A stretch of DNA of 11,863 bases from a virus (taxonomy: Duplodnaviria; Heunggongvirae; Uroviricota; Caudoviricetes): IMG/VR virus record IMGVR_UViG_2693429779_000014, positions 1 to 11,863 of that record. One strand, 5' to 3'. Each line of letters opens with the position of its first letter. The first letter of the stretch is position 1. The notes beneath the pieces were generated by a model. The model had not been told where the DNA came from and made no database searches. It saw only the letters and a list, made by a program, of their open reading frames with translations. The translations under genes were made by a program, and so were the position numbers. Below are positions 1-11,863 of the stretch, piece after piece.

Positions 1-183
1 TACACTAAATCAGTAAGTTGGCAGCATCACCCCGCCACAGAACAATTATTGCTTTTGCCGTTGATGACAATAAAGTTTTTATCGCAGGCGTATACCACGG
101 TGGGCAAATCTATGAAACCGATTTTTTATCCAGTGCACCGTAAAACCCCCATCCTTCAGGGCGTGGCGGATATCAAACTTTGG

Positions 184-1266
184 TCATTTTCTCTGGCTGA
201 TCTTTACCGGATAACCATCCCGAAGATCAATTAAGTGCTCCGGTTCAGAAGCAAACCATGCATAAGATCCCCACGCCAATTCTGGTATTGCCTTTTTAAA
301 AGGCAGAGCACTTCTGTCCATAAATGCCGTAAGGAATGCAAGATTTTTCTCGCTGAACCCAGCGTCAATAGCCAAATGAGTGAGAGTAACTTTTCGTTCC
401 CTGTTTATAGGCCCATCTGTCGCAACTACTTCAGTGAAAACTACAAGCATGTCCGAACCCGTTCGGTCCTCTCCCAAATCAATCAAAATAATATCTGGAA
501 GTGCTTTTGAGGCATCAATATTCAGCCCCAATGCTTTTGCCAATACATCATCCTGAGCAACAACTTTATTCCCGGATTCAGACAACCAGAGCACAGTTGG
601 ATTCTTAAGAAAATTAGGAGCAAAAACTTCGATGACGGCCTTAGCTATTGTACTTGACGGGCCCGGAGCTAAAGTTCTCTTCTCTCCATTTGGGAAAGTG
701 ACGACTACGGCATCAGCAGCAATCACTGCCCCTGATTTCAATAAACGCAACCTAGCAAGAGCGGCTTTGTTCAAATGATTTTCTTGCCAGGAACTTATTG
801 CACTCAGCAGCGAATCTCCTTCAAGCCCGGCATCAAAGAGTGCTGCAAAAGAGCGATTCAAACTGTAACGAGGACGAGAGGATGTGGTGGGTATACCTTT
901 ACGCTCAACAATTGCATTGCAAGGTATTAGGCCATTTTTTATAGTTTCATCACGTATTGGCTCACGCGTATTTTCCGCATACCATGCATCAGCAGGCCTT
1001 ATCTTTTGTTTAGAGAAAGTCATCTTTACCCAGCTTTCTCTGGACGCATCATCAGTAAGAGCAGCCTGCGAATCTCCCATACTTACAACCTGGCTGGGCC
1101 TTATCCATCGCCCCAGCCCCTCAACCGCACCAGCATAAAACATGACAAAAATTGTTTTTGCAGCTATTTCCCGAATTAAATATCCACGATTCTCAGTCCC
1201 TTCAGGGAAAATTAATTGTAATCTTTCCCGGATAACATTCAATGGGGGAACAACAGGCAGATTCAT
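184..1266 (-). CDS. Unassigned 360-aa partner of the adjacent methyltransferase; putative restriction endonuclease-like protein (possibly BsuBI/PstI-like, not verifiable here)
   Basis: 360-aa minus-strand ORF. Its ATG (1266-1264) overlaps the TGA stop (1265-1263) of the upstream methyltransferase gene (ATGA), and a GGAG lies about 10 nt upstream inside the MTase 3' end. No catalytic motif can be assigned with certainty; the stretch DIILIDLGEDRTGSDMLVVFTEVVATD is compatible with a PD-(D/E)xK-type core. The functional call rests on operon context. Confidence 0.45.
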   Translation of the reverse strand: MNLPVVPPLNVIRERLQLIFPEGTENRGYLIREIAAKTIFVMFYAGAVEGLGRWIRPSQVVSMGDSQAALTDDASRESWVKMTFSKQKIRPADAWYAENTREPIRDETIKNGLIPCNAIVERKGIPTTSSRPRYSLNRSFAALFDAGLEGDSLLSAISSWQENHLNKAALARLRLLKSGAVIAADAVVVTFPNGEKRTLAPGPSSTIAKAVIEVFAPNFLKNPTVLWLSESGNKVVAQDDVLAKALGLNIDASKALPDIILIDLGEDRTGSDMLVVFTEVVATDGPINRERKVTLTHLAIDAGFSEKNLAFLTAFMDRSALPFKKAIPELAWGSYAWFASEPEHLIDLRDGYPVKISQRK

Positions 1267-3095
1267 GCAATCATCACTCCATAGAAACCAGCGATAGTTC
1301 TCTCAATAATCCGTCTGTGGACGCCAGCATCAATTAACGATTGAATCTCCATCACCTGCTCCAGAGAAGGCAACGGGATTGAATTCAATTCATAGGCCGA
1401 AACAGCAACACTTCCGCTTATACACCTGAACGCCCGATCGACAACATGCGAATTAAGTAGCATATCAATAACATCAGGGCGAACCGCAGAGAACAATCCG
1501 TTTGAATATACAATATTAATATGGTTTTCAACTACTACGCCACCAGTTTCATCTATAAATCCCTGAGGTAAAATTGCCGCTAAAATCCTTCTGTCCTGTT
1601 CCTTCGATGTTGTCCGCTGAACAAGCACACATTCAGATTTTGTCACAAGGAAACCCTGTTGTGGGGTTATATCGATATAGGGAACATGATTTTTTCTGTC
1701 TGCACTAAAACGAAAACCAGCTGAAGTTATTGATTCCGCCCAGACTAATGGGTAGCTATTTTTTCCTTTCGTCGTACGCAACTGCGACTTAAATCGATTC
1801 CAGACTAACTGACCTGTAGAGACTGAGTATCCCAGATCAGCTAAACGCGTAGACATCTGTTTTAATACATTAAGAAAACAGGCATCATCTTTAACGCGTG
1901 GCAAAAGCCACGTTGCTCCACCTTTTTCTATATCAACATTACCTATTTTCTCAATTTTTGCTTTGTTCAACCCCTTAGGGACAAGTGAGGATACCTGGGC
2001 CCGAACTTTATGTTCTCCCGCCTTGAATGCTGTCAACATTGTTTCCTGGAGAACATCGTCAAAGACCCCATCCCTGTCAGTGACGAAATCAAGGGCATAC
2101 GGAGTAGTTTTTTCGGTCAAAAGGGTTCGCAGCGCGGTGAAATACTGCCCACCAAGAAAAGAAGTTGGCGTAAGAAATGCAATAACTCCTGTTTTCTCTT
2201 TAACCATGCGAACAGCTAAGTCGGTGAACAATCCATATAGATTTGCATGACCAAATAACGAACGAGAATATTTTTCTCTCGTTTTAATATCGAGAGTGAC
2301 ACGTCCGTAAGGCGGATTCCCTACCACAAGATCATAACCAGAAAATTTATCTTGCTGAAGCGCATCAGCAACAATAATTGTATCTTCAGGCAATCTACGT
2401 TTTACCTTTACACATAGTGGCATTAGTACAGATTCGAGCAATACCAAACTCATCCAAGCCGCAAATGGATCGATTTCTATCCCCTTTAAACGACGACTGA
2501 TTCTCCTCAACATCCATTCAGGGGAAGACCCCTTGTCTTTTTTTAACATTCGAATGGCTACTGGTGCCAAAAATGCACCGCCACCACACGCAGGATCAAT
2601 AACCGATGCATGAGAAAAATCAACACCAGACTTTTCAGCCAGGTCCAAGAGACGCGCTACCAAAGGTGGGGGGGTATAGTAAGCCCCCAATTCCGAACGG
2701 TAAGCGGATGGCAGCATTACCGTATAAATTGACCCAATCAGATATCCAGCGTCCTCCGCCGGAAATTGAGCAATAAGCTCACCTGTTCGTTCAGCGAGCT
2801 CGCGTGCATCACATGGAATGTCTTCTATGTAAACAGTGTGCGGTACTGCCCTCATTTTAATGCTGCTTTTTTGCTTTTTTGCAAGGGTATCCCAATATGC
2901 AGCTACGATGCTGAAGCAGTATGAGCGGGCATGCATCAACCTTGACTGCCCGGTTTTGTAATTGCCCGCATAACCTTTGGCCATGGCTTTACAAGTTTGA
3001 TATCTTTCCAGATTAGAAAACTCATTATCTGTAAAAAAATCAAAATGTTGCACATTCATAATGTAAAATCCTAATGTATCAAACATGCGGGCCAT
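1263..3095 (-). CDS. N6-adenine DNA methyltransferase, gamma-class (Eco57I/TaqI-like catalytic domain with a C-terminal target-recognition region of about 250 aa)
   Basis: The translation carries GAYYTPP, then the SAM-binding motif I VIDPACGGGAFL, then the catalytic motif IV DLVVGNPPYG, in gamma-class order. The first ATG is at 3095; a better-placed start is the ATG at 3059 (MNVQHF...), which has AGGA 9 nt upstream. Confidence 0.85.
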   Translation of the reverse strand: MARMFDTLGFYIMNVQHFDFFTDNEFSNLERYQTCKAMAKGYAGNYKTGQSRLMHARSYCFSIVAAYWDTLAKKQKSSIKMRAVPHTVYIEDIPCDARELAERTGELIAQFPAEDAGYLIGSIYTVMLPSAYRSELGAYYTPPPLVARLLDLAEKSGVDFSHASVIDPACGGGAFLAPVAIRMLKKDKGSSPEWMLRRISRRLKGIEIDPFAAWMSLVLLESVLMPLCVKVKRRLPEDTIIVADALQQDKFSGYDLVVGNPPYGRVTLDIKTREKYSRSLFGHANLYGLFTDLAVRMVKEKTGVIAFLTPTSFLGGQYFTALRTLLTEKTTPYALDFVTDRDGVFDDVLQETMLTAFKAGEHKVRAQVSSLVPKGLNKAKIEKIGNVDIEKGGATWLLPRVKDDACFLNVLKQMSTRLADLGYSVSTGQLVWNRFKSQLRTTKGKNSYPLVWAESITSAGFRFSADRKNHVPYIDITPQQGFLVTKSECVLVQRTTSKEQDRRILAAILPQGFIDETGGVVVENHINIVYSNGLFSAVRPDVIDMLLNSHVVDRAFRCISGSVAVSAYELNSIPLPSLEQVMEIQSLIDAGVHRRIIERTIAGFYGVMIA

Positions 3096-3309
3096 AACAT
3101 CTCATGGTGGCGCATAGCAAACTGGCCCGAAGAATATCACGCACCAAGTCGATCTCATAACCCGTTATGACAATAAATCTTTGTAGCTGAACTCACTTGG
3201 TGATTTGTCAATCATTCCTGGCCTCCAGTTCGTCCTGAATCTCTTTATCGAGTTCACCGTATTTGTTAGTCCTCATCACTCACGACTTGACTTCCAGAAA
3301 TAACCTTGA

Positions 3310-3645
3310 TTATTCGGGGCTATATTTTGTCACCCTGCGTATCCGCGCTTTCGCATTACGCTCAATCTGGATTAGCTTTTCTATATTTTTTCGCCTTTCC
3401 CGCTCCTCCTGGCGCAAGAGCCTTACATCATCTGCCAGTCTGGTTTCTCTTTTCGCCACAGAGAGCATCCAGTCAAATGGCTCCACAACTGCACCGCAAA
3501 TTTTACAGCGGACCTGACGCTCTTTTTCGTCAACCCGGACAGAGGCGTGATGGCAATATGGTCTTTCCGATGGCTCATAAAGAAAATTAACCTGATTACG
3601 AGGGTTATCCTCTTTTACCGGAAATAAAACACTGAAATTCTGCAA
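3310..3645 (-). CDS. Hypothetical protein, probably the 3' remnant of a gene truncated by the IS3-associated deletion; contains a Cys/His cluster (CHH...CKIC)
   Basis: 111-aa ORF whose first codons (3645 down to about 3620) lie in IS-derived sequence, so the native N-terminus is likely lost. No recognisable family; the C-terminal half is Arg/Glu-rich and looks coiled. Confidence 0.25.
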   Translation of the reverse strand: MQNFSVLFPVKEDNPRNQVNFLYEPSERPYCHHASVRVDEKERQVRCKICGAVVEPFDWMLSVAKRETRLADDVRLLRQEERERRKNIEKLIQIERNAKARIRRVTKYSPE

Positions 3646-3741
3646 CTGCGTAAGGCGTTAAATGAAGCTCGCCTTGAGCGAGATATATTAAAAAAAGCAA
3701 CAGCGTATTTTGCACAGGAGTCGCTGAAAAATACGCGTTAA
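3620..3741 (+). pseudogene. IS3-family orfA, 3' fragment only
   Basis: Only about 40 C-terminal codons of OrfA are present; an upstream in-frame stop sits at 3617-3619. Confidence 0.6.
3690..3697 (+). promoter_or_regulatory. A7G slippery run in the orfA/orfB overlap (programmed -1 frameshift signal typical of IS3-family elements)
   Basis: AAAAAAAG at 3690-3697 lies where the orfA frame (stop 3739-3741) and the orfB frame (open from 3678) overlap. Confidence 0.5.
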
Positions 3742-3776
3742 TCGAACAATGGCGACAACAATTTCCCATTGAAGCG

Positions 3777-4595
3777 ATGTGTCAGGTATTTGGTGTATCC
3801 AGGAGCGGTTATTACAACTGGGTACAGCATGAACCCTCAGACAGAAAACAAAGTGATGAGCGGCTAAAACTGGAGATTAAGGTGGCACATATCCGCACTC
3901 GCGAAACATATGGAACCCGGCGGCTCCAGACGGAGCTGGCAGAGAATGGCATCATCGTTGGTCGTGACCGACTGGCACGTCTTCGTAAGGAGCTAAGGCT
4001 ACGCTGTAAGCAGAAACGCAAGTTCAGAGCGACTACGAACTCGAACCACAATCTGCCAGTTGCGCCAAATCTGCTGAACCAGACGTTCGCTCCTACAGCA
4101 CCAAATCAGGTCTGGGTGGCGGACCTGACGTATGTTGCCACACAGGAGGGATGGTTGTACCTCGCTGGCATCAAAGATGTTTATACGTGCGAAATTGTCG
4201 GCTACGCCATGGGAGAGCGCATGACAAAAGAGCTGACAGGTAAAGCCCTGTTTATGGCGCTCAGGAGCCAGCGCCCACCTGCCGGGCTAATCCACCACTC
4301 TGATCGAGGTTCACAGTACTGCGCATACGATTACCGGGTCATACAGGAGCAGTCTGGTCTGAAAACATCAATGTCGCGTAAAGGTAACTGTTACGACAAC
4401 GCTCCGATGGAAAGCTTCTGGGGAACGCTGAAAAATGAGAGCCTGAGCCACTATCGTTTTAATAACCGGGATGAAGCCATCTCAGTAATACGGGAATACA
4501 TTGAGATTTTCTACAATCGTCAGCGTCGTCACTCTCGTCTGGGGAATATCTCCCCGGCAGCCTTCAGGGAAAAATATCATCAGATGGCTGCTTAA
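3777..4595 (+). CDS. IS3-family transposase OrfB (DDE integrase catalytic core)
   Basis: 272 aa from the first ATG; the frame is open from 3678, consistent with expression as an OrfAB fusion. Contains the D..D..E context (...VWVADLTYV..., ...HHSDRGSQY..., ...YDNAPMESFWGTLKNE...) and the C-terminal ...RQRRHSRLGNISPAAFREKY. Confidence 0.85.
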   Translation: MCQVFGVSRSGYYNWVQHEPSDRKQSDERLKLEIKVAHIRTRETYGTRRLQTELAENGIIVGRDRLARLRKELRLRCKQKRKFRATTNSNHNLPVAPNLLNQTFAPTAPNQVWVADLTYVATQEGWLYLAGIKDVYTCEIVGYAMGERMTKELTGKALFMALRSQRPPAGLIHHSDRGSQYCAYDYRVIQEQSGLKTSMSRKGNCYDNAPMESFWGTLKNESLSHYRFNNRDEAISVIREYIEIFYNRQRRHSRLGNISPAAFREKYHQMAA

Positions 4596-5008
4596 AAAAA
4601 GAACAAATGGTAGTGTCCGCTATTGCCAGTACACCTCATAGCTTCGCTCTTCCGGCACTCGCGACAGATTATATTCAGGCGCCTGTCGTAGCGGCGTATT
4701 TCTCCGTCTGGTAATGACCAGATAAGGTCAGGATCAACCACAACCGGTTTCTTCACCTTTACCCTCGATAGCTTTTTGCGGGCGTTTTGCCAGTCTTTAT
4801 GAGCCTGTTCAGAGGGAAATACCCCGTAGCCAGAATTATATACATCACCACTTGCGACCAGTTCTATGCATAAGCGACCGACAGACGCACGACTGATACC
4901 TGTTTCATCTGACAACTGCCGAATCGTGACCCGACCGTCCTGATGCACGAGTTCCACAATTCGCGTCTTCAGTTCTTCCCGCTGTTCGGGAGTAAAAGGT
5001 TTCGCCAT
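4592..5008 (-). CDS. Ren-like phage protein, copy A; 3' end altered next to the IS
   Basis: Starts MAKPFTPEQREEL... with AGGAGG upstream. Paralogous to the 5907..6389 ORF through ...DPDLIWSLPDGEIRRYDR..NIICRECRKSE, after which the two diverge. The ECRKSE region resembles the ECRQSAAMKRVL C-terminus I recall for lambda Ren (from memory). Confidence 0.5.
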   Translation of the reverse strand: MAKPFTPEQREELKTRIVELVHQDGRVTIRQLSDETGISRASVGRLCIELVASGDVYNSGYGVFPSEQAHKDWQNARKKLSRVKVKKPVVVDPDLIWSLPDGEIRRYDRRLNIICRECRKSEAMRCTGNSGHYHLFFF

Positions 5009-5022
5009 AAATCCTCCTGAAA

Positions 5023-5769
5023 CTACTTAACAACCCTCGAATGGCTAACATTCGGACGCCAGCTCTCCCAGTTAAAATTCACCCAGCGCCCGCCGTTCAT
5101 GACCATGCGATCCATCACCCGCTCGCCGAGCAATGTTTTCATCACCTCATAGTTCAGGTTTGTCAGCATCCCCACGCTGCGCATCGACGCTGTCCGGCGA
5201 TCAACAATCTGGTGCAGCACCACCTGCTCGTTTTTCGTCTCGCGCTGAATGCCAATTTCATCAAGAACCAGCAGATCCACTTCGCACAGCTCCCGCAAAA
5301 ATTTTTCGCCTGACTGCCCGTCGTCATAGCTGGCGTGCAGGGCGCTCATAACATCAGCCACGGTAACCACAATCACTGTCTGACCGTCTTTCAGCAGGCG
5401 ATTCCCGATAGCTGCCGCTAAGTGATTCTTCCCGGTACCAGGTTTTCCGCTGAACGCAAAATTTGTACACCCGGTCATCAGTTCATCGGCGATGGATTTC
5501 GCCTGGCTTAACGCGTATCGCTGGCCGTCGTTCTGCACCTGGTAATTCGCAAACGAGCATTTACGGTGCAACGGCTGGATGCCTGAGCGATTCAGAATTT
5601 TTTCCACCCGCAACTGGCGATTCAGGCGGTTGATCTCCTCGCTACGTTTCTGGCCTTCAGCAAGTTGCCACTCGCGCCACTCCGCTACCGTTCTGAATGG
5701 GGCGGTTACATGTGGCGGGGTCAGTCGGCGGATGCGTTCCAGAACGCCGCCTGTCGCAATATTTTTCAT
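5023..5769 (-). CDS. DnaC-like AAA+ helicase loader (phage replication protein), copy A
   Basis: 248 aa. Walker A FSGKPGTGKNHLAAAIG and Walker B DLLVLDEIG, with end-to-end collinearity to the E. coli DnaC sequence as I recall it (...NRSGIQPLH...CSFANY...MLTNLN...LGERVMDRM...). GGGGG-type SD upstream. Confidence 0.9.
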   Translation of the reverse strand: MKNIATGGVLERIRRLTPPHVTAPFRTVAEWREWQLAEGQKRSEEINRLNRQLRVEKILNRSGIQPLHRKCSFANYQVQNDGQRYALSQAKSIADELMTGCTNFAFSGKPGTGKNHLAAAIGNRLLKDGQTVIVVTVADVMSALHASYDDGQSGEKFLRELCEVDLLVLDEIGIQRETKNEQVVLHQIVDRRTASMRSVGMLTNLNYEVMKTLLGERVMDRMVMNGGRWVNFNWESWRPNVSHSRVVK

Positions 5770-5775
5770 GGTCCG

Positions 5776-6000
5776 TTACCCCCTGAAGCCTGGCGGGATC
5801 GCACTGTCCGGCAACGAGACGGTGTTAACCTGTCGGAGCAACGTCTCAGGCCGAACACCTTTCGGCGCGAACAGGCCCTGGTATTCATTGGCGATGCTGT
5901 GTCGAATCACCTGCTCAGGTGTAAAACCCTGCTGACGGAATTTTTCCAGTTCCCGTATCGCCCCGTTAGCGCCCTGCTCCGTTCGAATCGGTTTTCGCAA
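5776..6000 (-). pseudogene. 3' remnant of a second initiator gene (DnaT-like C-terminal domain only)
   Basis: The 74-aa frame ends ...VNTVSLPDSAIPPGFRG*, matching the C-terminus of the full-length initiator at 7905..8969 (...VNHISEPDTEIPPGFRG*). The N-terminal domain and iteron region are missing. It sits 6 nt upstream of DnaC-like copy A, the same spacing as in the intact module. Confidence 0.6.
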
Positions 6001-6389
6001 TGCCTGAGTACACGCTGCATAACTTCACTCTTCCGGCACTCGCGACAGATTATGTTCTGATGTCTGTCGTAGCGGCGTATTTCTCCGTCTGGTAATGACC
6101 AGATAAGGTCAGGATCAACCACAGATGGTTTCTTCAGATTTGCCCTTGAGAGTTTTTTGCGGGCGTTTTGCCAGTCCTTACGAGCCTGTTCAGACGGGAA
6201 TAACCCGTAGCCAGAGTTGTATACATCCCCACTGGCAACCAGCTCTCTGGCGAGAACGCTTATTAAATATCTTGTCGCCCCGGTTTTAGCTTCCAGTTGT
6301 CGTAACGTCTCGCGCCCACTCTGGCGTACGAGTTCAACAACCTGCCCCTTAATTTTTTCCCGCTCTTCCTGTGTAAATACTTTTGCCAT
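5907..6389 (-). CDS. Ren-like phage protein, copy B
   Basis: Start at ATG 6389 (MAKVFTQEEREKIK...), 15 nt after the upstream gene's stop. Contains ...ECRKSEVMQRVL..., but the frame then reads on into the initiator remnant with no stop until 5907, so the 3' end is probably not native. Confidence 0.55.
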   Translation of the reverse strand: MAKVFTQEEREKIKGQVVELVRQSGRETLRQLEAKTGATRYLISVLARELVASGDVYNSGYGLFPSEQARKDWQNARKKLSRANLKKPSVVDPDLIWSLPDGEIRRYDRHQNIICRECRKSEVMQRVLRHCENRFERSRALTGRYGNWKNSVSRVLHLSR

Positions 6390-6404
6390 AAGCGCCCCCG
6401 GCAA

Positions 6405-7130
6405 TCACTTTTCCGACACAATACGACCGGAGGAATCGACAATCTGTCGAACAATATCCCGGTGCTTGTTCAGCTCCCGCAACGCGGCGCAGACACGCTC
6501 CCACTTCTGGACATGACTTTTCGCCCGACGCAGTTCGCGGTTTGCCATATGCAGCGATGGTAAAACCAGGTCATCCGCTTGCGTTTCGGTGAACGATGGC
6601 AACGACTGCACAATGTCCGCCACAGTTTCTGTTTTAATTTCTTCCTGTGTTGCAGCTTCCTGTACCGGTAACGCAACACCTGCTGGCTGAGGAAAGACTT
6701 TACCATCCGTTTCCGCTATGGATGCGGCTTTCGGCTCTGCCGGTAAATCAGCGCCCGGTATGCAGTACCGAAATTTACCGCCCTGATTCACGCGAATCAG
6801 ACGCCCTTTGCTGATTGCCATGGCCAGCGATGAATTCGCCCGGCGGGAGGTAATCCCGAACATCAGTGCCAGCTCATCCGCCGTTTGTGGGCCATGTTGT
6901 TCAATCGCCTCAGTCAGCATTTGCGCTGTCACTTTCGGTACCGGTGACACTGGTTCACTTTCACCAGCCTGAATCAGCCACCACATCGAACCCTTGTTAT
7001 CCGCTTCACCACGGCGCTTCAGTTTCCACAGTTCGTTGACCGCATCTTCACGGCTGATTCCAAGGCGGGACGCCACCACATGTGAAGAGGCTCTTTTCAG
7101 TGCTTTCAGTGCGTCAAATACAGTTTCCAT
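6405..7130 (-). CDS. Hypothetical phage protein with two N-terminal winged-helix-like segments and an acidic linker
   Basis: The six-frame track starts at 7148 (TTG), but the ATG at 7130 ([12 protein letters not shown]...) has GGAGG 8 nt upstream. Two wHTH-like segments (...[24 protein letters not shown]... and ...[31 protein letters not shown]...). Lies between the DnaC-like and Ren-like genes. Confidence 0.6.
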
Positions 7131-7151
7131 TAAAACATCCTCCAACAAAAA

Positions 7152-7898
7152 TTACTTCACAACTCCCGGAAAGCTGACATTTGAACGCCAGCTATCCCAG
7201 TTAAACGTCACCCACCGACAACCGTTCATGGTCATGCGGTCCATAATCCTCTCACCAAGAAGCGTGCTCATTGCGGCATGATTCAGGTTTGTTAACATCC
7301 CGACACTGCACAGTGATGCTGTCCGGCGATCAATTATCTGGTGCAATACCACCTGCTCGTTTTTCGTCTCCCGCTGAATGCCTATTTCATCCAGGACCAG
7401 CAAATCAACCCCGCAAAGCTCCTGTAAAAATTTTTCACCGGATTTGCCGTTGTCGTAGCTGTCATGCAACACGCTCATGACATCAGACTCGGTGACGATA
7501 ATCACGCTGCGCCCCTTCGCCATCAGCCGGTTACCCATCGCCGCTGCAAGGTGATTTTTCCCGGTGCCGGTTTTACCGCTGAACACAAAATTCGTGCACC
7601 CGGTCATCAGTTCGTCAGCTATGGATTTGGCCTGGCTCAGCGCGTATTTTTGCCCGTCGTTCTGCACCTGATAATTCGCAAACGAGCATTTGCTGTGCAG
7701 AGGCTGGATGCCCGAACGATTCAGGATTTTTTCCACCCGCAACTGGCGATTCTGGCGGTTAATCTCCTCGCTGCGTTTTCGTCCTTCAGCAAGTTGCCAT
7801 TCCCGCCACTCCTCCACCGTCCGGTACGGTGGAACCGCCCCCTGTGGTGCAAGTCTGTGAATACGTTCAAGAACCCCGGCTGCCGCAATGTTTTTCAT
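7152..7898 (-). CDS. DnaC-like AAA+ helicase loader (phage replication protein), copy B
   Basis: 248 aa. Walker A FSGKTGTGKNHLAAAMG and Walker B DLLVLDEIG; about 85% identical to copy A at protein level but with many synonymous DNA differences. Starts 6 nt after the initiator stop. Confidence 0.9.
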   Translation of the reverse strand: MKNIAAAGVLERIHRLAPQGAVPPYRTVEEWREWQLAEGRKRSEEINRQNRQLRVEKILNRSGIQPLHSKCSFANYQVQNDGQKYALSQAKSIADELMTGCTNFVFSGKTGTGKNHLAAAMGNRLMAKGRSVIIVTESDVMSVLHDSYDNGKSGEKFLQELCGVDLLVLDEIGIQRETKNEQVVLHQIIDRRTASLCSVGMLTNLNHAAMSTLLGERIMDRMTMNGCRWVTFNWDSWRSNVSFPGVVK

Positions 7899-7904
7899 GC
7901 CACA

Positions 7905-8969
7905 TCACCCCCTGAATCCCGGCGGAATTTCGGTATCCGGTTCAGAAATATGATTCACACAACGCTGGTTGTTCGTGCCGCTTACCGGGAGCAACCAGGG
8001 GTTTTCAAAATTCCGGTCCGGCCCAAAAAACGTCGTCGCTCGCTGAACAAATTCCGTTCCCGCTTTCCCGGTCGCCGCCAGGTATCTCGCGTAACGCCTC
8101 ACACCATCCAGCATGGTCTCTGGTGGCACCCCCTCGCGCAATCTGGCCTTCCAGGCACTGAATGCGGATTTCTTCGGGTTTGCCCCGGCACGCAACGGGT
8201 ATTCCCGCCAGACCTGTTCGAACACATCCGGATAATCCACTCGTCCCACAGGCTGCCCGGTGTTTTCCGGGGCTACCCGATCGGCTTCCCGCTGAATGGC
8301 GGAATCGGCTTCAGGCTGCTGCAGTTGGAGTGATTGCTCCGGCCTTGCGGTCATCACCTGCTGCACAGCGCCCGAATCGGCTTTCAGCGCATACGCTGAA
8401 TCGGCTTCCGGTGTCGAGCCTGCTGGCTGACCAGGATTGACGGTCTGAACATCCCCTGCCTGGTTCGTGGCGTTTTTTACGCCATGGACCATAGTGTTTT
8501 GATCTTCTTTATCTGTATCTTTATCTGTATCTGTCGTGACTCGTCGTGACATGTGCGTGACATTTCGTGACGCGCCGTGACAATCGCCATTTTGTTCCCG
8601 CTTTCTTTCCCTCTCTCGCTGCGCCCTCTTGCGCTCTGCAGGAGATTTTGCGGTTTGCGAAATATTGCCGTTGTCCTCTTTAAGCACCTGGCGTTTTTCC
8701 CATCCAGTGATTAAATCACCATCAAGTACCCGCCCCTGCATCGTCTGCAAAATTGAATCAATTACCTCTTCTGTCACGTCGAGCGCACTTGCCAAATCTT
8801 CTGTCGTGACATCAATGTGACCTCGCGTGACATTTCGTGACGCGCTCACCAGGAGGTGGATATACACTGCCATCACTGTTGCAATTGGCTGCCCTGACAC
8901 CCTGGCAATTGTTCGCCACTTAGGGTCATTTGGCATGTCATGCCATAATCTGAGCCAGGCGTTAGCCAT
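7905..8969 (-). CDS. Phage replication initiator-like protein (YdaU-like N-terminal domain, low-complexity linker, DnaT-like C-terminal domain)
   Basis: The track starts at GTG 8975; the ATG at 8969 (MANAWLRLWHDMPNDPKW...) has GAGG 5 nt upstream. The C-terminus ...SEPDTEIPPGFRG matches the end of E. coli primosomal protein DnaT as I recall it. The gene body contains the iteron clusters listed below, and a DnaC-like gene follows immediately. Confidence 0.75.
   Translation of the reverse strand: MANAWLRLWHDMPNDPKWRTIARVSGQPIATVMAVYIHLLVSASRNVTRGHIDVTTEDLASALDVTEEVIDSILQTMQGRVLDGDLITGWEKRQVLKEDNGNISQTAKSPAERKRAQRERERKREQNGDCHGASRNVTHMSRRVTTDTDKDTDKEDQNTMVHGVKNATNQAGDVQTVNPGQPAGSTPEADSAYALKADSGAVQQVMTARPEQSLQLQQPEADSAIQREADRVAPENTGQPVGRVDYPDVFEQVWREYPLRAGANPKKSAFSAWKARLREGVPPETMLDGVRRYARYLAATGKAGTEFVQRATTFFGPDRNFENPWLLPVSGTNNQRCVNHISEPDTEIPPGFRG
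8535..8581. repeat. Iteron cluster 2: five direct CGTGAC repeats at 10-11 bp phasing, preceded by the tandem repeat TTTATCTGTATC x2 (8508-8531)
   Basis: CGTGAC begins at 8535, 8545, 8556, 8566 and 8576, all in the same orientation. The cluster is inside the initiator's linker-coding region. Confidence 0.55.
8805..8845. repeat. Iteron cluster 1: four direct (C/T)GTGAC repeats at 10-11 bp phasing, plus one inverted copy (GTCACG, 8773-8778)
   Basis: The repeats begin at 8805, 8816, 8826 and 8836. The 21-mer GCGTGACATTTCGTGACGCGC is exactly repeated at 8825-8845 and 8555-8575. Confidence 0.5.
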
Positions 8970-9040
8970 ACTCACCTCTTCTGATACCGAATCTTTTTAC
9001 TCACGAGTTGCCGGGAGCGATTCGATATGGCTATTGTCAG

Positions 9041-9466
9041 TCAATGTACTGCCACAGCATTTCCTGCCGGGCCACCACGGTTCATCTGATTGAAACCGGC
9101 GATTGCCACTGCGACAAAATCATCAGCGTCTCTCACCAGTCGTTCATGCGTCTCCACCAGTTCCCGAAAATAAGCTGAACTGTGGCTGCGCATTCGAGCC
9201 ACCAGCGGAGGTGGCATTGCCCTTTCGATCGCAGGTAACAACGCCTGAATTTTTTCAACAGCGTCAGGGGTGTCTTTATCCAGCCAACGGAAAATCTTTT
9301 GGGTGTTGAGATAAAGCGTGTTGTGCTTGCTGTCGTTATGCAGAACCGGAAACGTCATTCCCAGTTCGAAATAAACCCTGGTTATTTCAGCTGCCGGAAC
9401 TTTTTCACCGTCCGGATGCGCCCAGGCTTTCATCGCCATGCGGATGTGTTCATGCTTGATTTTCAT
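9041..9466 (-). CDS. YdaT-like protein (occupies the CII position after the Cro-like gene)
   Basis: 141 aa starting MKIKHEHI.... Its ATG overlaps the TGA of the upstream Cro-like gene (ATGA at 9463-9466). The position and order match the ydaS-ydaT-ydaU-ydaV arrangement of Rac-type prophages as I recall it. Confidence 0.55.
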   Translation of the reverse strand: MKIKHEHIRMAMKAWAHPDGEKVPAAEITRVYFELGMTFPVLHNDSKHNTLYLNTQKIFRWLDKDTPDAVEKIQALLPAIERAMPPPLVARMRSHSSAYFRELVETHERLVRDADDFVAVAIAGFNQMNRGGPAGNAVAVH

Positions 9467-9726
9467 GAATCAACCCCCGCCGATGGTTGTGTGTTAGCCT
9501 GAAACTCAGCAGGCAAGCCGTCAGTTGGGTTGGGGTAGGTTTTACTGTCAATCTCATGTGGGGTCACCACCCATCCCGTTGCTTCACACCAACGTAATAT
9601 TTTTTCTCCTGTAAGTTTTGCACGCCCCGTTATAACGTGGCTGACCATCCCTTGGGATGCGCCAACAATCTCAGCAAATGAACTCTGGGTTATATGAAAA
9701 TGATGCAAATATTCTCCAAGATTCAT
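9463..9726 (-). CDS. Cro-like / YdaS-like small HTH regulator
   Basis: The track starts at 9753 (TTG). The ATG at 9726 (MNLGEYLHHFHITQSSFAEIVGASQGMVSHVITG...) has GGGCGGA upstream. It shows an HTH pattern (SQ..A...G.SQ..VS) and is divergent from the repressor gene. Confidence 0.7.
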   Translation of the reverse strand: MNLGEYLHHFHITQSSFAEIVGASQGMVSHVITGRAKLTGEKILRWCEATGWVVTPHEIDSKTYPNPTDGLPAEFQANTQPSAGVDS

Positions 9727-9762
9727 AATCCGCCCTATGTGATGTGTTACCAATGCATAATT

Positions 9763-9825
9763 AATAGCACTGTTATTTTTAAAAGTAAATAGTGATGCTA
9801 TTTCAAAGTGATTAGCAATCTTATT
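9763..9825. promoter_or_regulatory. OR-like region: three operator-like 15-bp sites with divergent promoters
   Basis: Sites AATAGCACTGTTATT (9763-9777), AATAGTGATGCTATT (9788-9802) and a weaker ATTAGCAATCTTATT (9811-9825), spaced 24-25 bp. Rightward promoter candidates: -35 TTTCAA (9801-9806) and -10 TAGAAT (9825-9830). Leftward candidates: -35 TTTACT (complement of 9784-9789) and -10 TATTAA (complement of 9761-9766). Confidence 0.5.
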
Positions 9826-9837
9826 AGAATTGGATGT

Positions 9838-10338
9838 ATGAAAAGAAAATCATTGTCAGACACCGACCTCAACGCCGCCAGAAGACTGAAAGAAATCTGG
9901 ATGGCAAAGAAATCTCAGTTGGGATTGACTCAGGAACGTGCGGCGGAAATTATGGGGTTTTCAACACAAGGGGCGGTAAGTCACTACCTAAATGGTCAAA
10001 CCCCACTAAACCTTGAGGCTGTTCTAAAGTTTGCTGGCTTACTGAAAGTTCCCCCTGAGTCAATCAGGCCAGACATGGTAGATTTGCTGCAAATTGCAAG
10101 GATGTATTGTCGAGAACCACAGCAAGATAACATAGTCGCATTACCAGCAGACACAGAACAAACAGAGGATGAACTACCGTTTGCCGTAGAGCCGATGGAA
10201 CGAGATTTAATCCATACGTTCAGAGCTTTTCCGAAAGAAGATCAAGAACACATGCTTCAGGAGATGAAAGATAAAAAAGAATCAATGGATCGTACGGTTG
10301 CGCGGTGGTTAGCTGCACAAAAAGGCCGTCGCGCCTAA
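9838..10338 (+). CDS. cI/PaaR-like HTH (XRE-family) repressor; candidate prophage immunity repressor and regulator of the downstream toxin-antitoxin pair
   Basis: The track starts at GTG 9808; the ATG at 9838 (MKRKSLSDTDLNAARRLKEIWMAKKSQLGLTQERAAEIMGFSTQGAVSHYLNG...) gives 166 aa. It has an N-terminal HTH (LTQERAAEIMGFSTQGAVSHY), is divergent from the Cro-like gene, and carries an acidic C-terminal region. Confidence 0.7.
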   Translation: MKRKSLSDTDLNAARRLKEIWMAKKSQLGLTQERAAEIMGFSTQGAVSHYLNGQTPLNLEAVLKFAGLLKVPPESIRPDMVDLLQIARMYCREPQQDNIVALPADTEQTEDELPFAVEPMERDLIHTFRAFPKEDQEHMLQEMKDKKESMDRTVARWLAAQKGRRA

Positions 10339-10357
10339 ATCAGAGGAGATATGTAAA

Positions 10358-10552
10358 ATGAGTACAGTCCTTTCCCCAATGGTTTCAGAATTTGAGACAG
10401 TTGAGCAAGAAAATAGTTACAACGAATGGCTGCGGGCCAAAGTAGCAGCAAGCCTCGCGGATCCCCGCCCGGCGATTCCGCATGATGAGGTAATGGCGGA
10501 AATGGAACAAATTATTGCCCAAATTGCTGCTGCAACTCACAGAGGTGAATAA
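10358..10552 (+). CDS. Small antitoxin, PaaA2-like (partner of the ParE-family toxin)
   Basis: 64 aa with GAGGAG 7 nt upstream. The stop overlaps the toxin start (TAATG at 10550-10554). The sequence ...SPMVSEFETVEQENSYNEWLRAKVA... resembles the PaaA2 antitoxin of E. coli O157 prophages as I recall it. Confidence 0.6.
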   Translation: MSTVLSPMVSEFETVEQENSYNEWLRAKVAASLADPRPAIPHDEVMAEMEQIIAQIAAATHRGE

Positions 10553-10842
10553 TGTTACCCGTTTTATGGCTACCATCTGCTCGTGATGATTTGCGCCAGA
10601 TCGTAGCCTACATAGCTAAAGAAAATCCCGCGGCAGCACGCAGAATGAAAATTCGAATTGAAACATCCGTTTTGCCGCTCACAGAGCATCCTTACCTGTA
10701 TCCTCCAAGCGAGCGAGTTCTTGGTCTTCGTGAAATTGTAACTCATCCTAACTACATCATCCTTTACCGAGTAACAGCATCAAGCATAGAAGTAGTAAAT
10801 ATTGTGCATTCTCGAAGACAGTATCCAGGCAAAAACAGTTAA
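10552..10842 (+). CDS. parE: ParE/RelE-superfamily toxin (ParE2-like)
   Basis: 96 aa with the characteristic pattern W.P.A..DL..I..YIA..NP.AA......I......L...P..G.......GLREIV.....I.LYRV......V..I.H.RR. Translationally coupled to the upstream antitoxin. Confidence 0.8.
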   Translation: MLPVLWLPSARDDLRQIVAYIAKENPAAARRMKIRIETSVLPLTEHPYLYPPSERVLGLREIVTHPNYIILYRVTASSIEVVNIVHSRRQYPGKNS

Positions 10843-10858
10843 TTATTCCCGCCGACAG

Positions 10859-10884
10859 AACCACCTTAGGGTGGTTTTTTCTTG
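10859..10884 (+). terminator. Intrinsic (Rho-independent) terminator of the repressor-antitoxin-toxin operon
   Basis: Stem AACCACC (10859-10865), loop TTAG, stem GGTGGTT (10870-10876), then a T-tract (10877-10880), 17 nt after the ParE stop. Confidence 0.7.
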
Positions 10885-10898
10885 CCCCAACAAAAAAC

Positions 10899-10940
10899 AA
10901 TAGCGATGCTATTTACATCAAAAAAAATAATGATGCTATT
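10899..10940. promoter_or_regulatory. OL-like region: two operator-like 15-bp sites with a candidate rightward promoter
   Basis: AATAGCGATGCTATT (10899-10913, a perfect AATAG-N5-CTATT palindrome) and AATAATGATGCTATT (10926-10940), spaced 27 bp. A -35-like TTTACA (10912-10917) overlaps the first site, as at the OR-like region; the -10 is not clear. Confidence 0.45.
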
Positions 10941-11121
10941 GTTTCAGGCGTCAACCCACCCCGCCCCACAGAATGCAGGGCAATACTTCGAGTTACCAGA
11001 CAGTGGTCAGGGGTTAAGTAGCCAGCCCGAGGCGTAAGAACATGACGGCAGGGTTCAATCTTTAACTATGCAGCAGGTTTTTTGTTCCGCCACCCCGGCG
11101 TTAAGGGGAAATGAGGTCAGC

Positions 11122-11274
11122 ATGGATACTATCGATCTTGGCAACAACGAATCTCTGGTGTGCGGCGTGTTCCCTAACCAGGATGGAACGTTTACCGCCA
11201 TGACGTATACCAAAAGCAAAACGTTTAAAACCGAATCTGGCGCGCGTTGCTGGTTAGCCAGAAACACTGACTGA
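11122..11274 (+). CDS. Hypothetical small protein (50 aa), first gene of the candidate early-left operon
   Basis: ATG at 11122 with GAGG 5 nt upstream (MDTIDLGNNESLVCGVFPNQDGTFTAMTYTKSKTFKTESGARCWLARNTD). The track's longer version (11068) lacks an SD. Confidence 0.4.
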   Translation: MDTIDLGNNESLVCGVFPNQDGTFTAMTYTKSKTFKTESGARCWLARNTD

Positions 11275-11285
11275 TGAGGCTGACG

Positions 11286-11651
11286 ATGGAATTTAAAGAT
11301 TTACCGTCTGATGTACAGAAAACAGCAGCTCATACATTGCATTCTGTGCTGCGAGAAATCGGGAAAGATATTGCAAGCGAGCCAGCAAAAGATCTGGCCC
11401 GGAAAATCAAGACCGCTTTCGTTGAGCTTTATAATGTTGGCACTGACTCTGAAACTGTCGAGACCAAGACCGTAAGTTCACCAATATTCTCACTTGAGCC
11501 AAGCGTATTATCAGGTGAAATATGCACCGAGATTTCCAGCGAACTGCTTCCGGTAATACGAGAAGCAATTCGCCGTCGCGGTTTGGATGGAAGTTATGAT
11601 CATGACGTTCTGCAAGTTCTCAGGACAATGGTGACTTCACTGGGGATTTGA
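11286..11651 (+). CDS. Hypothetical protein (121 aa)
   Basis: ATG at 11286 (MEFKDLPSDVQKTAAHTL...) with GAGG 6 nt upstream, 9 nt after the stop of the upstream small ORF. No family recognised. Confidence 0.5.
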   Translation: MEFKDLPSDVQKTAAHTLHSVLREIGKDIASEPAKDLARKIKTAFVELYNVGTDSETVETKTVSSPIFSLEPSVLSGEICTEISSELLPVIREAIRRRGLDGSYDHDVLQVLRTMVTSLGI

Positions 11652-11863
11652 TCCCTGCGTCCTCTAAGCTTTTGATATAGCGGTCCTCCAAGAAGCGGTA
11701 AATTTTGTCGAAATCATCTTTTCCCTCTGGTTTATTCAGAGGATTACAGGACCCGTAAGTAGCGGCATACATTTCAACCGTTTGGTAATGACTCCAACTT
11801 ATTGGTAGTGTTTTATGTTCAGATAATGCCCGATGACTTTGTCATGCAGCTCCACCGATTTTG

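Follow-up and report, generated by a model that had tools for sequence, protein, structure and literature searches.

The 11,863-nucleotide (nt) stretch of viral DNA analysed here (the window; IMG/VR record IMGVR_UViG_2693429779_000014, positions 1 to 11,863) contains a three-gene operon, paaR-paaA-parE, which encodes a repressor, an antitoxin and a ParE-type toxin. The most likely reading, with a probability of roughly 0.85, is that of an immunity region from a decayed Shigella sonnei prophage of lambdoid type, in which the repressor operon carries the toxin-antitoxin (TA) pair PaaA-ParE as cargo. This assignment is carried by the identities and arrangement of the genes, by operator repeats at two promoter regions and their conservation in relatives, by a box for the CII-like protein YdaT, and by a repressor that has the fold of the lambda CI DNA-binding domain and no peptidase domain.

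Organisation and identity of the operon

The genes of the operon and its terminator are as follows.

9838-10338, plus strand: paaR-family repressor, 166 amino acids (aa) from ATG
10358-10552, plus strand: paaA antitoxin, 64 aa, with a GGAG Shine-Dalgarno sequence 9 nt upstream
10552-10842, plus strand: parE toxin, 96 aa, translationally coupled to paaA via TAATG
10857-10883, plus strand: intrinsic terminator of the operon, from folding and from relatives

The repressor and antitoxin genes are separated by 19 nt (10339-10357) containing the GGAG ribosome-binding site, and the antitoxin stop shares one base with the toxin start in TAATG at 10550-10554. The original prediction, made from the sequence alone, had described a repressor followed by a 64-aa antitoxin and an overlapping ParE-like toxin; this order stands, while the gap that it gave as 20 nt is 19 nt. 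The terminator that it placed behind the toxin is present as a hairpin at 10857-10878, in which the stem AGAACCACC/GGUGGUUUU encloses the loop UUAG and is followed by a U-rich run. The hairpin folds with -15.1 kcal/mol (z = -3.2 against shuffled sequences), and an equivalent hairpin with a T-run is found in the loci of relatives. A simple terminator scan did not report it, probably because the stem is able to extend into the T-run, and the structure was resolved by folding the stretch.

The antitoxin has PF21217 PaaA2 as its only Pfam match (E 3e-23) and matches the PaaA2 chain 3zbe in the PDB (E 1e-23). The toxin matches PF05016 ParE_toxin (E 2e-17) and, in the PDB, the crystal structure of ParE2 from E. 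coli O157 (5cw7, E 7e-37), and the repressor matches HTH_3 (E 8e-9). These Pfam and PDB matches, together with exact look-ups in a protein collection, indicate that the open reading frames (ORFs) are not chance occurrences. For comparison with the two characterised systems, Sakai prophage Sp4 (ECs_1069-1067) served as the reference for system 1 and phage Evi, whose regulator starts with MQKKE as published for PaaR2, as that for system 2. ParE is 86% identical to ParE1 and 67% to ParE2; PaaA is 77% identical to PaaA1 over its full length, C-terminal tail included, and 75% to PaaA2 over 56 residues. The repressor shares 56% identity with PaaR1 over the C-terminal 64 aa and 52% with PaaR2 over the last 44 aa (E 5e-15); what it has in common with both is a C-terminal stretch of about 48 residues. 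The proposed membership in the PaaR-PaaA-ParE type is thus borne out for each of the three genes. The locus is not the PaaR2 system itself, as its TA pair resembles that of system 1 more closely and its repressor has an N-terminus that matches neither system. PaaA1 and PaaA2 were reported not to cross-neutralise, so the type-1-like pair described here should, by analogy, be insulated from type 2.

Two further readings of the repressor gene were rejected. A longer ORF starting at GTG-9808 would contain a conserved -10-like hexamer, and RefSeq gives 166 aa in an E. coli locus with 96% identity. A promoter-like match at 9925-9953, inside the gene, is not above chance expectation. The gene also contains a perfect 12-nt inverted repeat, GATTGACTCAGG / CCTGAGTCAATC, at 9923-9934 and 10054-10065 (119 nt apart), which by a rough estimate has a chance of about 6% in such a region and may mean nothing.

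The repressor

The repressor is composed of a CI-like N-terminal DNA-binding domain (approximately aa 1-90), a disordered linker (92-112) and the helical PaaR C-terminal domain (119-166). Its best matches among solved structures are all the N-terminal domain of lambda CI (1lmb, E 3e-9, residues 2-81), and the top-ranked matches listed for it in a tblastn search of 50,697 phage records are cI of lambda and close relatives, with 31% identity. The AlphaFold2 model, with a mean predicted local distance difference test (pLDDT) value of 78.5, is all-helical and comprises a domain at 8-90, the linker at 92-112 and two C-terminal helices at 119-165. Comparison of the N-terminal domain with lambda CI (1lmb/3kz3) by Foldseek gave a target TM-score of 0.85-0.93, a root-mean-square deviation of 1-2 Å and 37-40% identity. 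The basic N-terminal arm reads MKRKSLS in the repressor and STKKKPLT in lambda. In the alignment to 1lmb, E33 and E37 of the repressor align with Glu34 and Asp38 of lambda CI, and the acidic residues are kept. Glu34 and Asp38 of lambda CI form a patch that contacts RNA polymerase.

The relation to lambda CI is limited to the DNA-binding domain. The repressor has no Peptidase_S24 match and no S24 beta domain in its model; it is therefore not a full member of the LexA/CI family and is not expected to respond to RecA. The literature likewise notes that PaaR2 is devoid of a RecA-dependent cleavage domain. It also describes PaaR2 as having no sequence similarity to CI, in contrast to the repressor of the window, in which such similarity is present.

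The alignment of relatives yields a signature of the PaaR family in the C-terminal segment, ...FPEEDQ..M..EMK.KKESM...ARWLAAQKGRRA. The N-terminal helix-turn-helix types that are joined to this segment are the PaaR2 type, the PaaR1 (XRE) type, the lambda-CI-like type and a tandem of two domains. Tandem-domain repressors in front of the common C-terminal domain were observed in L008 (4001-4735), L075 (3395-4147), L027 and L067-L072 of the loci surveyed below. One tandem form joins lambda-CI-like and PaaR1-like domains (243-250 aa), and another is matched by tblastn to PaaR1-like as well as PaaR2-like domains. An immunity repressor with two heads would be out of the ordinary.

Operators, promoters and neighbouring genes

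The candidate right (OR) and left (OL) operators, the promoter elements and the divergent genes are located as follows. The OR operators were located by pattern search and through the repeat families D1, I3, I4 and I6.

9763-9777: candidate OR operator, 15 bp, AATAGCACTGTTATT
9788-9802: candidate OR operator, 15 bp, AATAGTGATGCTATT
9811-9825: candidate OR operator, 15 bp, ATTAGCAATCTTATT
10899-10913: candidate OL operator, beyond the terminator, AATAGCGATGCTATT
10926-10940: candidate OL operator, beyond the terminator, AATAATGATGCTATT
10912-10917: PL-like -35 element TTTACA, beside the OL operators
9802-9830, plus strand: PRM-like promoter TTCAAA-17-TAGAAT from a promoter scan, the -10 ending 7 nt before the repressor ATG
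9761-9789, minus strand: PR-like promoter candidate, TTTACT (9789-9784), 17-nt spacer and TATTAA (9766-9761), read by eye
9463-9726, minus strand: ydaS-like cro analogue, 87 aa from ATG 9726 (HTH_3, E 5e-4, below the Pfam cut-off)
9041-9466, minus strand: ydaT-like cII analogue, 141 aa (PF06254 YdaT_toxin, E 5e-9)
9456-9473, no strand assigned: YdaT box TTGATTTTCATGAATCAA, a PRE-type site centred on the overlap of the ydaS stop and the ydaT start

The OR operators have centre-to-centre spacings of 25 and 23 bp. When the pattern AATAG-N5-CTATT is searched with up to two mismatches, five of its eight matches in the window fall within the OR and OL stretches (10899-10940 for OL), which together make up about 105 bp of 11.9 kb; with up to one mismatch, all four do. 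In relatives whose N-terminal domain is 71-85% identical, among them loci from other sources with different cargo, the AATAG/CTATT half-sites are kept while the central 5 bp vary, as would be expected if the operators are real. In prophages whose repressors have PaaR1- or PaaR2-type domains, both the OR and the OL positions carry different repeats of their own. Downstream of parE2 in CP-933P, PL and OL have been shown experimentally.

The middle OR operator abuts the PRM-like -35 and is centred about 43 bp before the ATG, and the third lies between the -35 and the -10. This geometry would resemble that of OR2 and OR3 at lambda PRM. The hexamer TAGAAT/TAAAAT at 6-7 nt from the repressor ATG is conserved in relatives and leaves no room for a Shine-Dalgarno sequence; the placement of the promoter would fit a leaderless repressor mRNA. 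Leaderless mRNA is known for lambda cI, and that of paaR2 has been shown experimentally (PMC8630535). The PR-like candidate, which the promoter scanner did not call, overlaps the first and second OR operators and would read into ydaS; its CTATTTAC junction recurs at OL (inverted repeat I1).

The 87-aa ydaS product is also annotated in the E. coli locus with 96% identity. YdaT shares 87% identity with its counterpart in phage Evi, which has an immunity module of the PaaR2 (CP-933P) type. The Pfam name YdaT_toxin would suggest a second TA pair, ydaS-ydaT; this was rejected on the published evidence for Cro and CII analogues, according to which YdaT is a transcription factor and not a toxin (PMC8630535, PMC9986795). 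The motif TTGATTN6AATCAA and its location at the ydaS/ydaT junction are known from PMC9986795, and the window has a single, perfect match to it, with 0.07 expected by chance.

The placement of the regulator at the cI position, as originally predicted, is supported by the divergent ydaS, ydaT and replication genes, by the operators at both OR and OL, and by the CI-like N-terminal domain; paaA-parE occupies the position of rexAB, the rex slot. The remaining features around the operon are the following.

7152-7898: DnaC/IstB-like ATPase, beyond ydaT
7905-8975: O-like protein of 356 aa, beyond ydaT
10952-11121, plus strand: conserved non-coding leader of the PL-side operon, 85-97% identity across immunity types
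11122-11274, plus strand: ydfA-like gene (DUF1391; PF07151, E 3e-28), first of the PL-side operon

The 356-aa protein has no Pfam match, and its counterparts in E. coli relatives are annotated or matched as DnaT-like replication proteins. The ydfA annotation is present in the E. coli relative. The leader is better conserved than the neighbouring genes, with 75% identity to Pectobacterium, and its consensus fold contains a few compensatory pairs. When 9300-11863 was searched against Rfam, nothing credible came up, the one match to an antisense family (E 0.26) being far below the gathering score. The leader might be a cis-acting antitermination or regulatory RNA, as no N-like gene is evident.

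Comparison with known systems

PaaR1-PaaA1-ParE1 of E. coli O157:H7 (CP-933M / Sakai Sp4; Hallez et al. 2010) resembles the operon of the window in gene order, spacing and position opposite ydaS-ydaT. PaaR1, however, is a 133-aa XRE-type protein with an unrelated N-terminal domain, whereas the repressor described here is a 166-aa lambda-CI-like protein. The operator repeats of Sp4 are AAAAACTGT/ACAGTTTTT rather than AATAG-N5-CTATT, and the N-terminus of YdaS differs as well. Taken together, these three differences indicate that the window has a different immunity specificity. DNA comparison with Sakai Sp4 shows a mosaic structure. Homology is lost between approximately 9537 and 10211, an interval covering the YdaS N-terminus, the operators, and the N-terminal domain and linker of the repressor, and it resumes at 76% across the repressor C-terminal domain, paaA and parE. 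The operator/promoter stretch after parE again differs by immunity type. The conserved C-terminal domain and the TA genes are thus situated between two immunity-specific patches.

PaaR2-PaaA2-ParE2 (CP-933P / Sp12) shares the architecture of the window: OR contains several operators, OL/PL follow the toxin gene, the repressor promoter is placed such that its mRNA would be leaderless, and a Cro-like YdaS is accompanied by a CII-like YdaT with TTGATTN6AATCAA. The repressors of both loci are without a RecA-dependent cleavage domain. Jurenas et al. 2021 (PMC8630535) reported that in CP-933P PaaR2 acts as CI, YdaS as Cro and YdaT as CII, and that the locus is bistable and addictive. In the experiments on CP-933P, PaaR2 and YdaS bound DNA and gave footprints, PR-, PRM- and PL-type promoters were repressed, and promoter activity dependent on YdaT was observed. 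The dual-role reading was already shown for the CP-933P homologue (Jurenas et al. 2021; Prolic-Kalinsek et al. 2023). The original prediction had suggested that prophage immunity and TA control may be exercised by the same protein. The cI position, the OR and OL operators and the CI-like fold support this suggestion; the idea that the regulator is the prophage repressor is correct here but was already published in 2021.

Lambda cI-rexA-rexB likewise combines the repressor and accessory cargo in one operon, with a terminator before OL/PL. The two regions also have in common a divergent cro-type gene, multiple shared operators and a homologous N-terminal domain of the repressor. Lambda CI differs in carrying an S24 autocleavage/dimerisation domain in place of the short helical PaaR domain, and the lambda cargo is RexAB rather than a ParE-type TA pair. 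In the window, a YdaT protein is the counterpart of CII, and an N gene is not evident, unlike in lambda. Canonical ParD-ParE systems (RK2, Vibrio cholerae ParDE2) similarly consist of a ParE-fold toxin and a small neutraliser encoded upstream. ParD, however, has an N-terminal DNA-binding domain that autoregulates the operon; PaaA of the window is without one and matches the PaaA2 family only, and regulation is assigned to a separate repressor, which would also control other promoters. BstA of the Salmonella prophage BTP1 (Owen et al. 2021, PMC8585504) is encoded directly after the repressor, presumably under a common promoter, as are PaaA and ParE. BstA, a single protein, acts in abortive infection and has a self-immunity element based on DNA, in contrast to PaaA-ParE, a TA pair of proteins for which no anti-phage activity has been demonstrated.

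Proposed mechanism

The mechanism proposed for the window draws on the characterised homologues (Hallez et al. 2010, to the extent that PMC4803016 summarises it; PMC8630535; PMC9986795). The 166-aa repressor would bind the 15-bp AATAG-N5-CTATT operators through its lambda-CI-like N-terminal domain and probably oligomerise through the conserved C-terminal helices. Bound at OR, it would shut the promoter of the ydaS / ydaT / replication operon, and at the operator beside its own -35 it could activate its own operon and, when more abundant, repress it. Bound at OL, it would shut the ydfA-side promoter just past the terminator.

The paaA and parE genes are predicted to be co-transcribed with the repressor gene. 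In the O157 systems the toxin arrests growth, PaaA neutralises the toxin and PaaR represses the operon; PaaA2 is described as being without any DNA-binding domain and is degraded by ClpAP/ClpXP. By analogy, the small PaaA of the window, also without a DNA-binding domain, would neutralise ParE, a putative nucleoid-acting toxin, by direct binding. If PaaA is labile, loss of the locus would free ParE, and the cell would be killed or arrested; the pair would in this way make the immunity region addictive. Addiction, in the form of plasmid stabilisation, has been demonstrated for the CP-933P homologue.

YdaT, acting at its box in the ydaS/ydaT junction, could drive a second transcript through the operon, by which the antitoxin would still be supplied in the other state of a bistable switch. 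It had been suggested that toxin expression is coupled to the lysogenic state. This is not what was seen in the CP-933P homologue, where the TA genes are transcribed in both switch states and the SOS response is raised in neither; release of the toxin is thus not simply tied to a "lysogenic" state.

Host distribution and remnant state

By exact look-up, each of the five immunity proteins is found on at least 1000 contigs, with Shigella sonnei or Shigella/Enterobacteriaceae as the name, and the assembly collection has 6004 blocks in which the exact repressor is indexed. The best match to a complete E. coli genome covers 79% of the query with 96% identity; the short IS1 piece of the window accounts for the tens of thousands of places that BLAST finds in E. 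coli genomes. The exact repressor was found in four complete chromosomes of 4.9-5.0 Mb, including HE616528.1, which we take to be S. sonnei 53G. In these four chromosomes the immunity region is situated in a short block between chromosomal genes, which are ydfZ and a mannitol dehydrogenase gene at one end and dmsC-type genes, among others, at the other. The genes called within 10 kb of it in each direction include none for head, tail or lysis proteins, and copies of the insertion sequence (IS) IS1 interrupt the block.

The window itself ends in an IS1 terminus (approximately 11757-11863), which cuts the PL-side operon after a 125-aa ORF. An IS3-family transposase orfB with rve domains is located at 3777-4595; no preceding plus-strand ORF of at least 40 aa could be its orfA. 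The replication module within 4592-8975 is partly duplicated: it contains a pair of DnaC/IstB-like genes with 81% identity to each other, a pair of DUF977 genes with 73% and, at 5776-6000, a short remnant that matches the C-terminus of the O-like protein. The four complete chromosomes have one copy each of the duplicated genes. The duplication looks like recombination between two prophages.

An IS-cut element without structural genes is a remnant, and the repressor can therefore only control the remaining early operons. No lysogenic state is left for it to regulate, and what remains is the silencing of these operons.

At the left edge of the prophage remnant (184-3095, minus strand), a type II restriction-modification pair was observed, in which a BsuBI/PstI-family endonuclease gene (360 aa) overlaps that of an Eco57I/N6-type methyltransferase (610 aa). 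The four complete chromosomes with the exact repressor have this pair in the corresponding position.

The cargo slot behind PaaR-family repressors

The slot behind the repressor was surveyed in 93 loci encoding a PaaR C-terminal domain, mostly from a viral-contig collection and many of them redundant. An alignment of the full-length repressors contained no stretch conserved enough to fetch related loci; a 48-residue alignment of the C-terminal domain fetched 3 loci from the genome collection and 80 from the viral collection. In 75 of the 93 loci, paaA and parE directly follow the repressor, and in the other 18 they are absent. Alternative contents of the slot include the following.

L013 and L062 (Pectobacterium): BstA, an established prophage abortive-infection protein (PADLOC, E 7e-125)
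L008-L010: a HipA_2 and DUF3037 pair, PADLOC candidate PDC-M66
L026: HicA-HicB
L011 (4295-5129), L029 (4192-4949) and L030 (4268-5093): an uncharacterised two-gene unit in Klebsiella-type and viral-contig loci
L060 and L061: deletion remnants of paaA-parE

The presence of other cargo in the slot indicates that the repressor family exists independently of the TA genes. The two-gene unit encodes a protein of about 120 aa with two CxxC motifs and then a protein of about 130-170 aa with a C-terminal hydrophobic stretch. It has no Pfam match, and the L011 pair, the only one scanned, has no PADLOC match. In view of the BstA, PDC-M66 and HicAB cases in this slot, these are candidate defence or exclusion genes. 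The interval between cI and N is known as a hotspot holding rexAB and bstA (Owen et al. 2021, PMC8585504), which, like the survey, bears out the name rex slot. As support for a defence role of PaaA-ParE, the survey is circumstantial.

Alternative explanations

The helix-turn-helix protein could instead be a dedicated TA regulator, the detached DNA-binding half of a split antitoxin, to which the cro- and cII-like neighbours would be incidental. A PaaA without its own DNA-binding domain needs a separate regulator, and in its first description the system was no more than a three-component TA. Such a regulator would not account for operator repeats that recur beyond the TA terminator at a second promoter region, nor for an N-terminal domain homologous to that of lambda CI. 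Repressors with the same C-terminal domain, moreover, precede BstA, HicAB, a candidate defence pair or nothing recognisable, and PaaR2 was shown to repress PR- and PL-type promoters; we consider this explanation hardly tenable. It is very improbable, too, that the module is an inactive relic whose genes are intact by chance in a decaying prophage. The element has indeed been cut by IS1, contains an IS3-family fragment and duplicated replication genes, and has no structural genes; the PL spacer, too, looks altered. Yet the three frames are intact, with the Shine-Dalgarno sequence, the start/stop coupling and the terminator in place, and the operators and the YdaT box are intact as well. The exact repressor is present in about 6000 blocks, and exact copies of the antitoxin and of the toxin occur on at least 1000 contigs in each case. 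An active TA pair would itself explain the survival of this piece amid decay. That PaaA-ParE serves mainly to defend against other phages, by abortive infection or exclusion, rather than for addiction is possible though unlikely, and the two roles are not mutually exclusive. The occupation of the slot by BstA in Pectobacterium, by PDC-M66 and by HicAB, and the hotspot character of the cI-N interval, speak for defence. Against it, the PADLOC scan of the repressor, PaaA and ParE gave no match at E <= 0.01, and literature searches found no report of phage defence by PaaA-ParE; in the homologue only plasmid stabilisation was demonstrated, with no toxin activation in either switch state.

The immunity-region reading, with PaaA-ParE as its cargo, is preferred over these alternatives, and several points weigh against it as well. 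The repressor's DNA-binding domain differs from those of both characterised PaaR proteins, so the operator assignment and the promoter logic are predictions. The target of ParE1 and ParE2 is described no more firmly than as "likely topoisomerases". In the remnant state of the element, the blocking of superinfecting homoimmune phage may be vestigial. Finally, the distance from TTTACA to the best -10 (TATTGT) at the PL-like promoter is 19 nt, versus 16-17 nt in the near-identical loci. The A-run in this spacer (10918-10925) has 8 A, versus 5-6 A in L001 and L016-L018, loci with identical or near-identical proteins, and the OL operators are spaced by 27 bp rather than 25 bp. The 8-A tract may result in a weaker PL or in changed cooperativity of the repressor in this strain.

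Implications for the PaaR family and its hosts

The family, the three-gene layout, the cI/rex placement and the dual role of the regulator have all been published with experiments. What the window adds is an uncharacterised immunity type, in which a PaaR-family repressor has a DNA-binding domain visibly homologous to that of lambda CI. PaaR and CI are now linked by sequence, where the literature had a functional analogy only. The PaaR family emerges as one conserved C-terminal domain combined with interchangeable DNA-binding domains, each with its own OR and OL operators. This modularity of the repressor and the defence reading are the only parts that go beyond the literature.

The other cargo, comprising BstA, HicAB, the PADLOC candidate pair and the gene pairs of unknown function, makes a defence role of PaaA-ParE worth testing. 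In a wider form, which we regard as speculative and quite unlikely, the slot behind PaaR repressors would be a general defence-cargo slot of Enterobacterales prophages, with PaaA-ParE as its commonest occupant. The pair would then act in abortive infection in the manner of RexAB or BstA, and a superinfecting phage would trigger it, for instance if shut-off of host transcription led to loss of the labile PaaA. The C-terminal domain, located between the two immunity-specific stretches, would serve as a homologous crossover point, which would let immunity specificities be swapped while the cargo is retained. For Shigella sonnei, the TA pair may help to explain why this fragment persists in a heavily IS-eroded genome.

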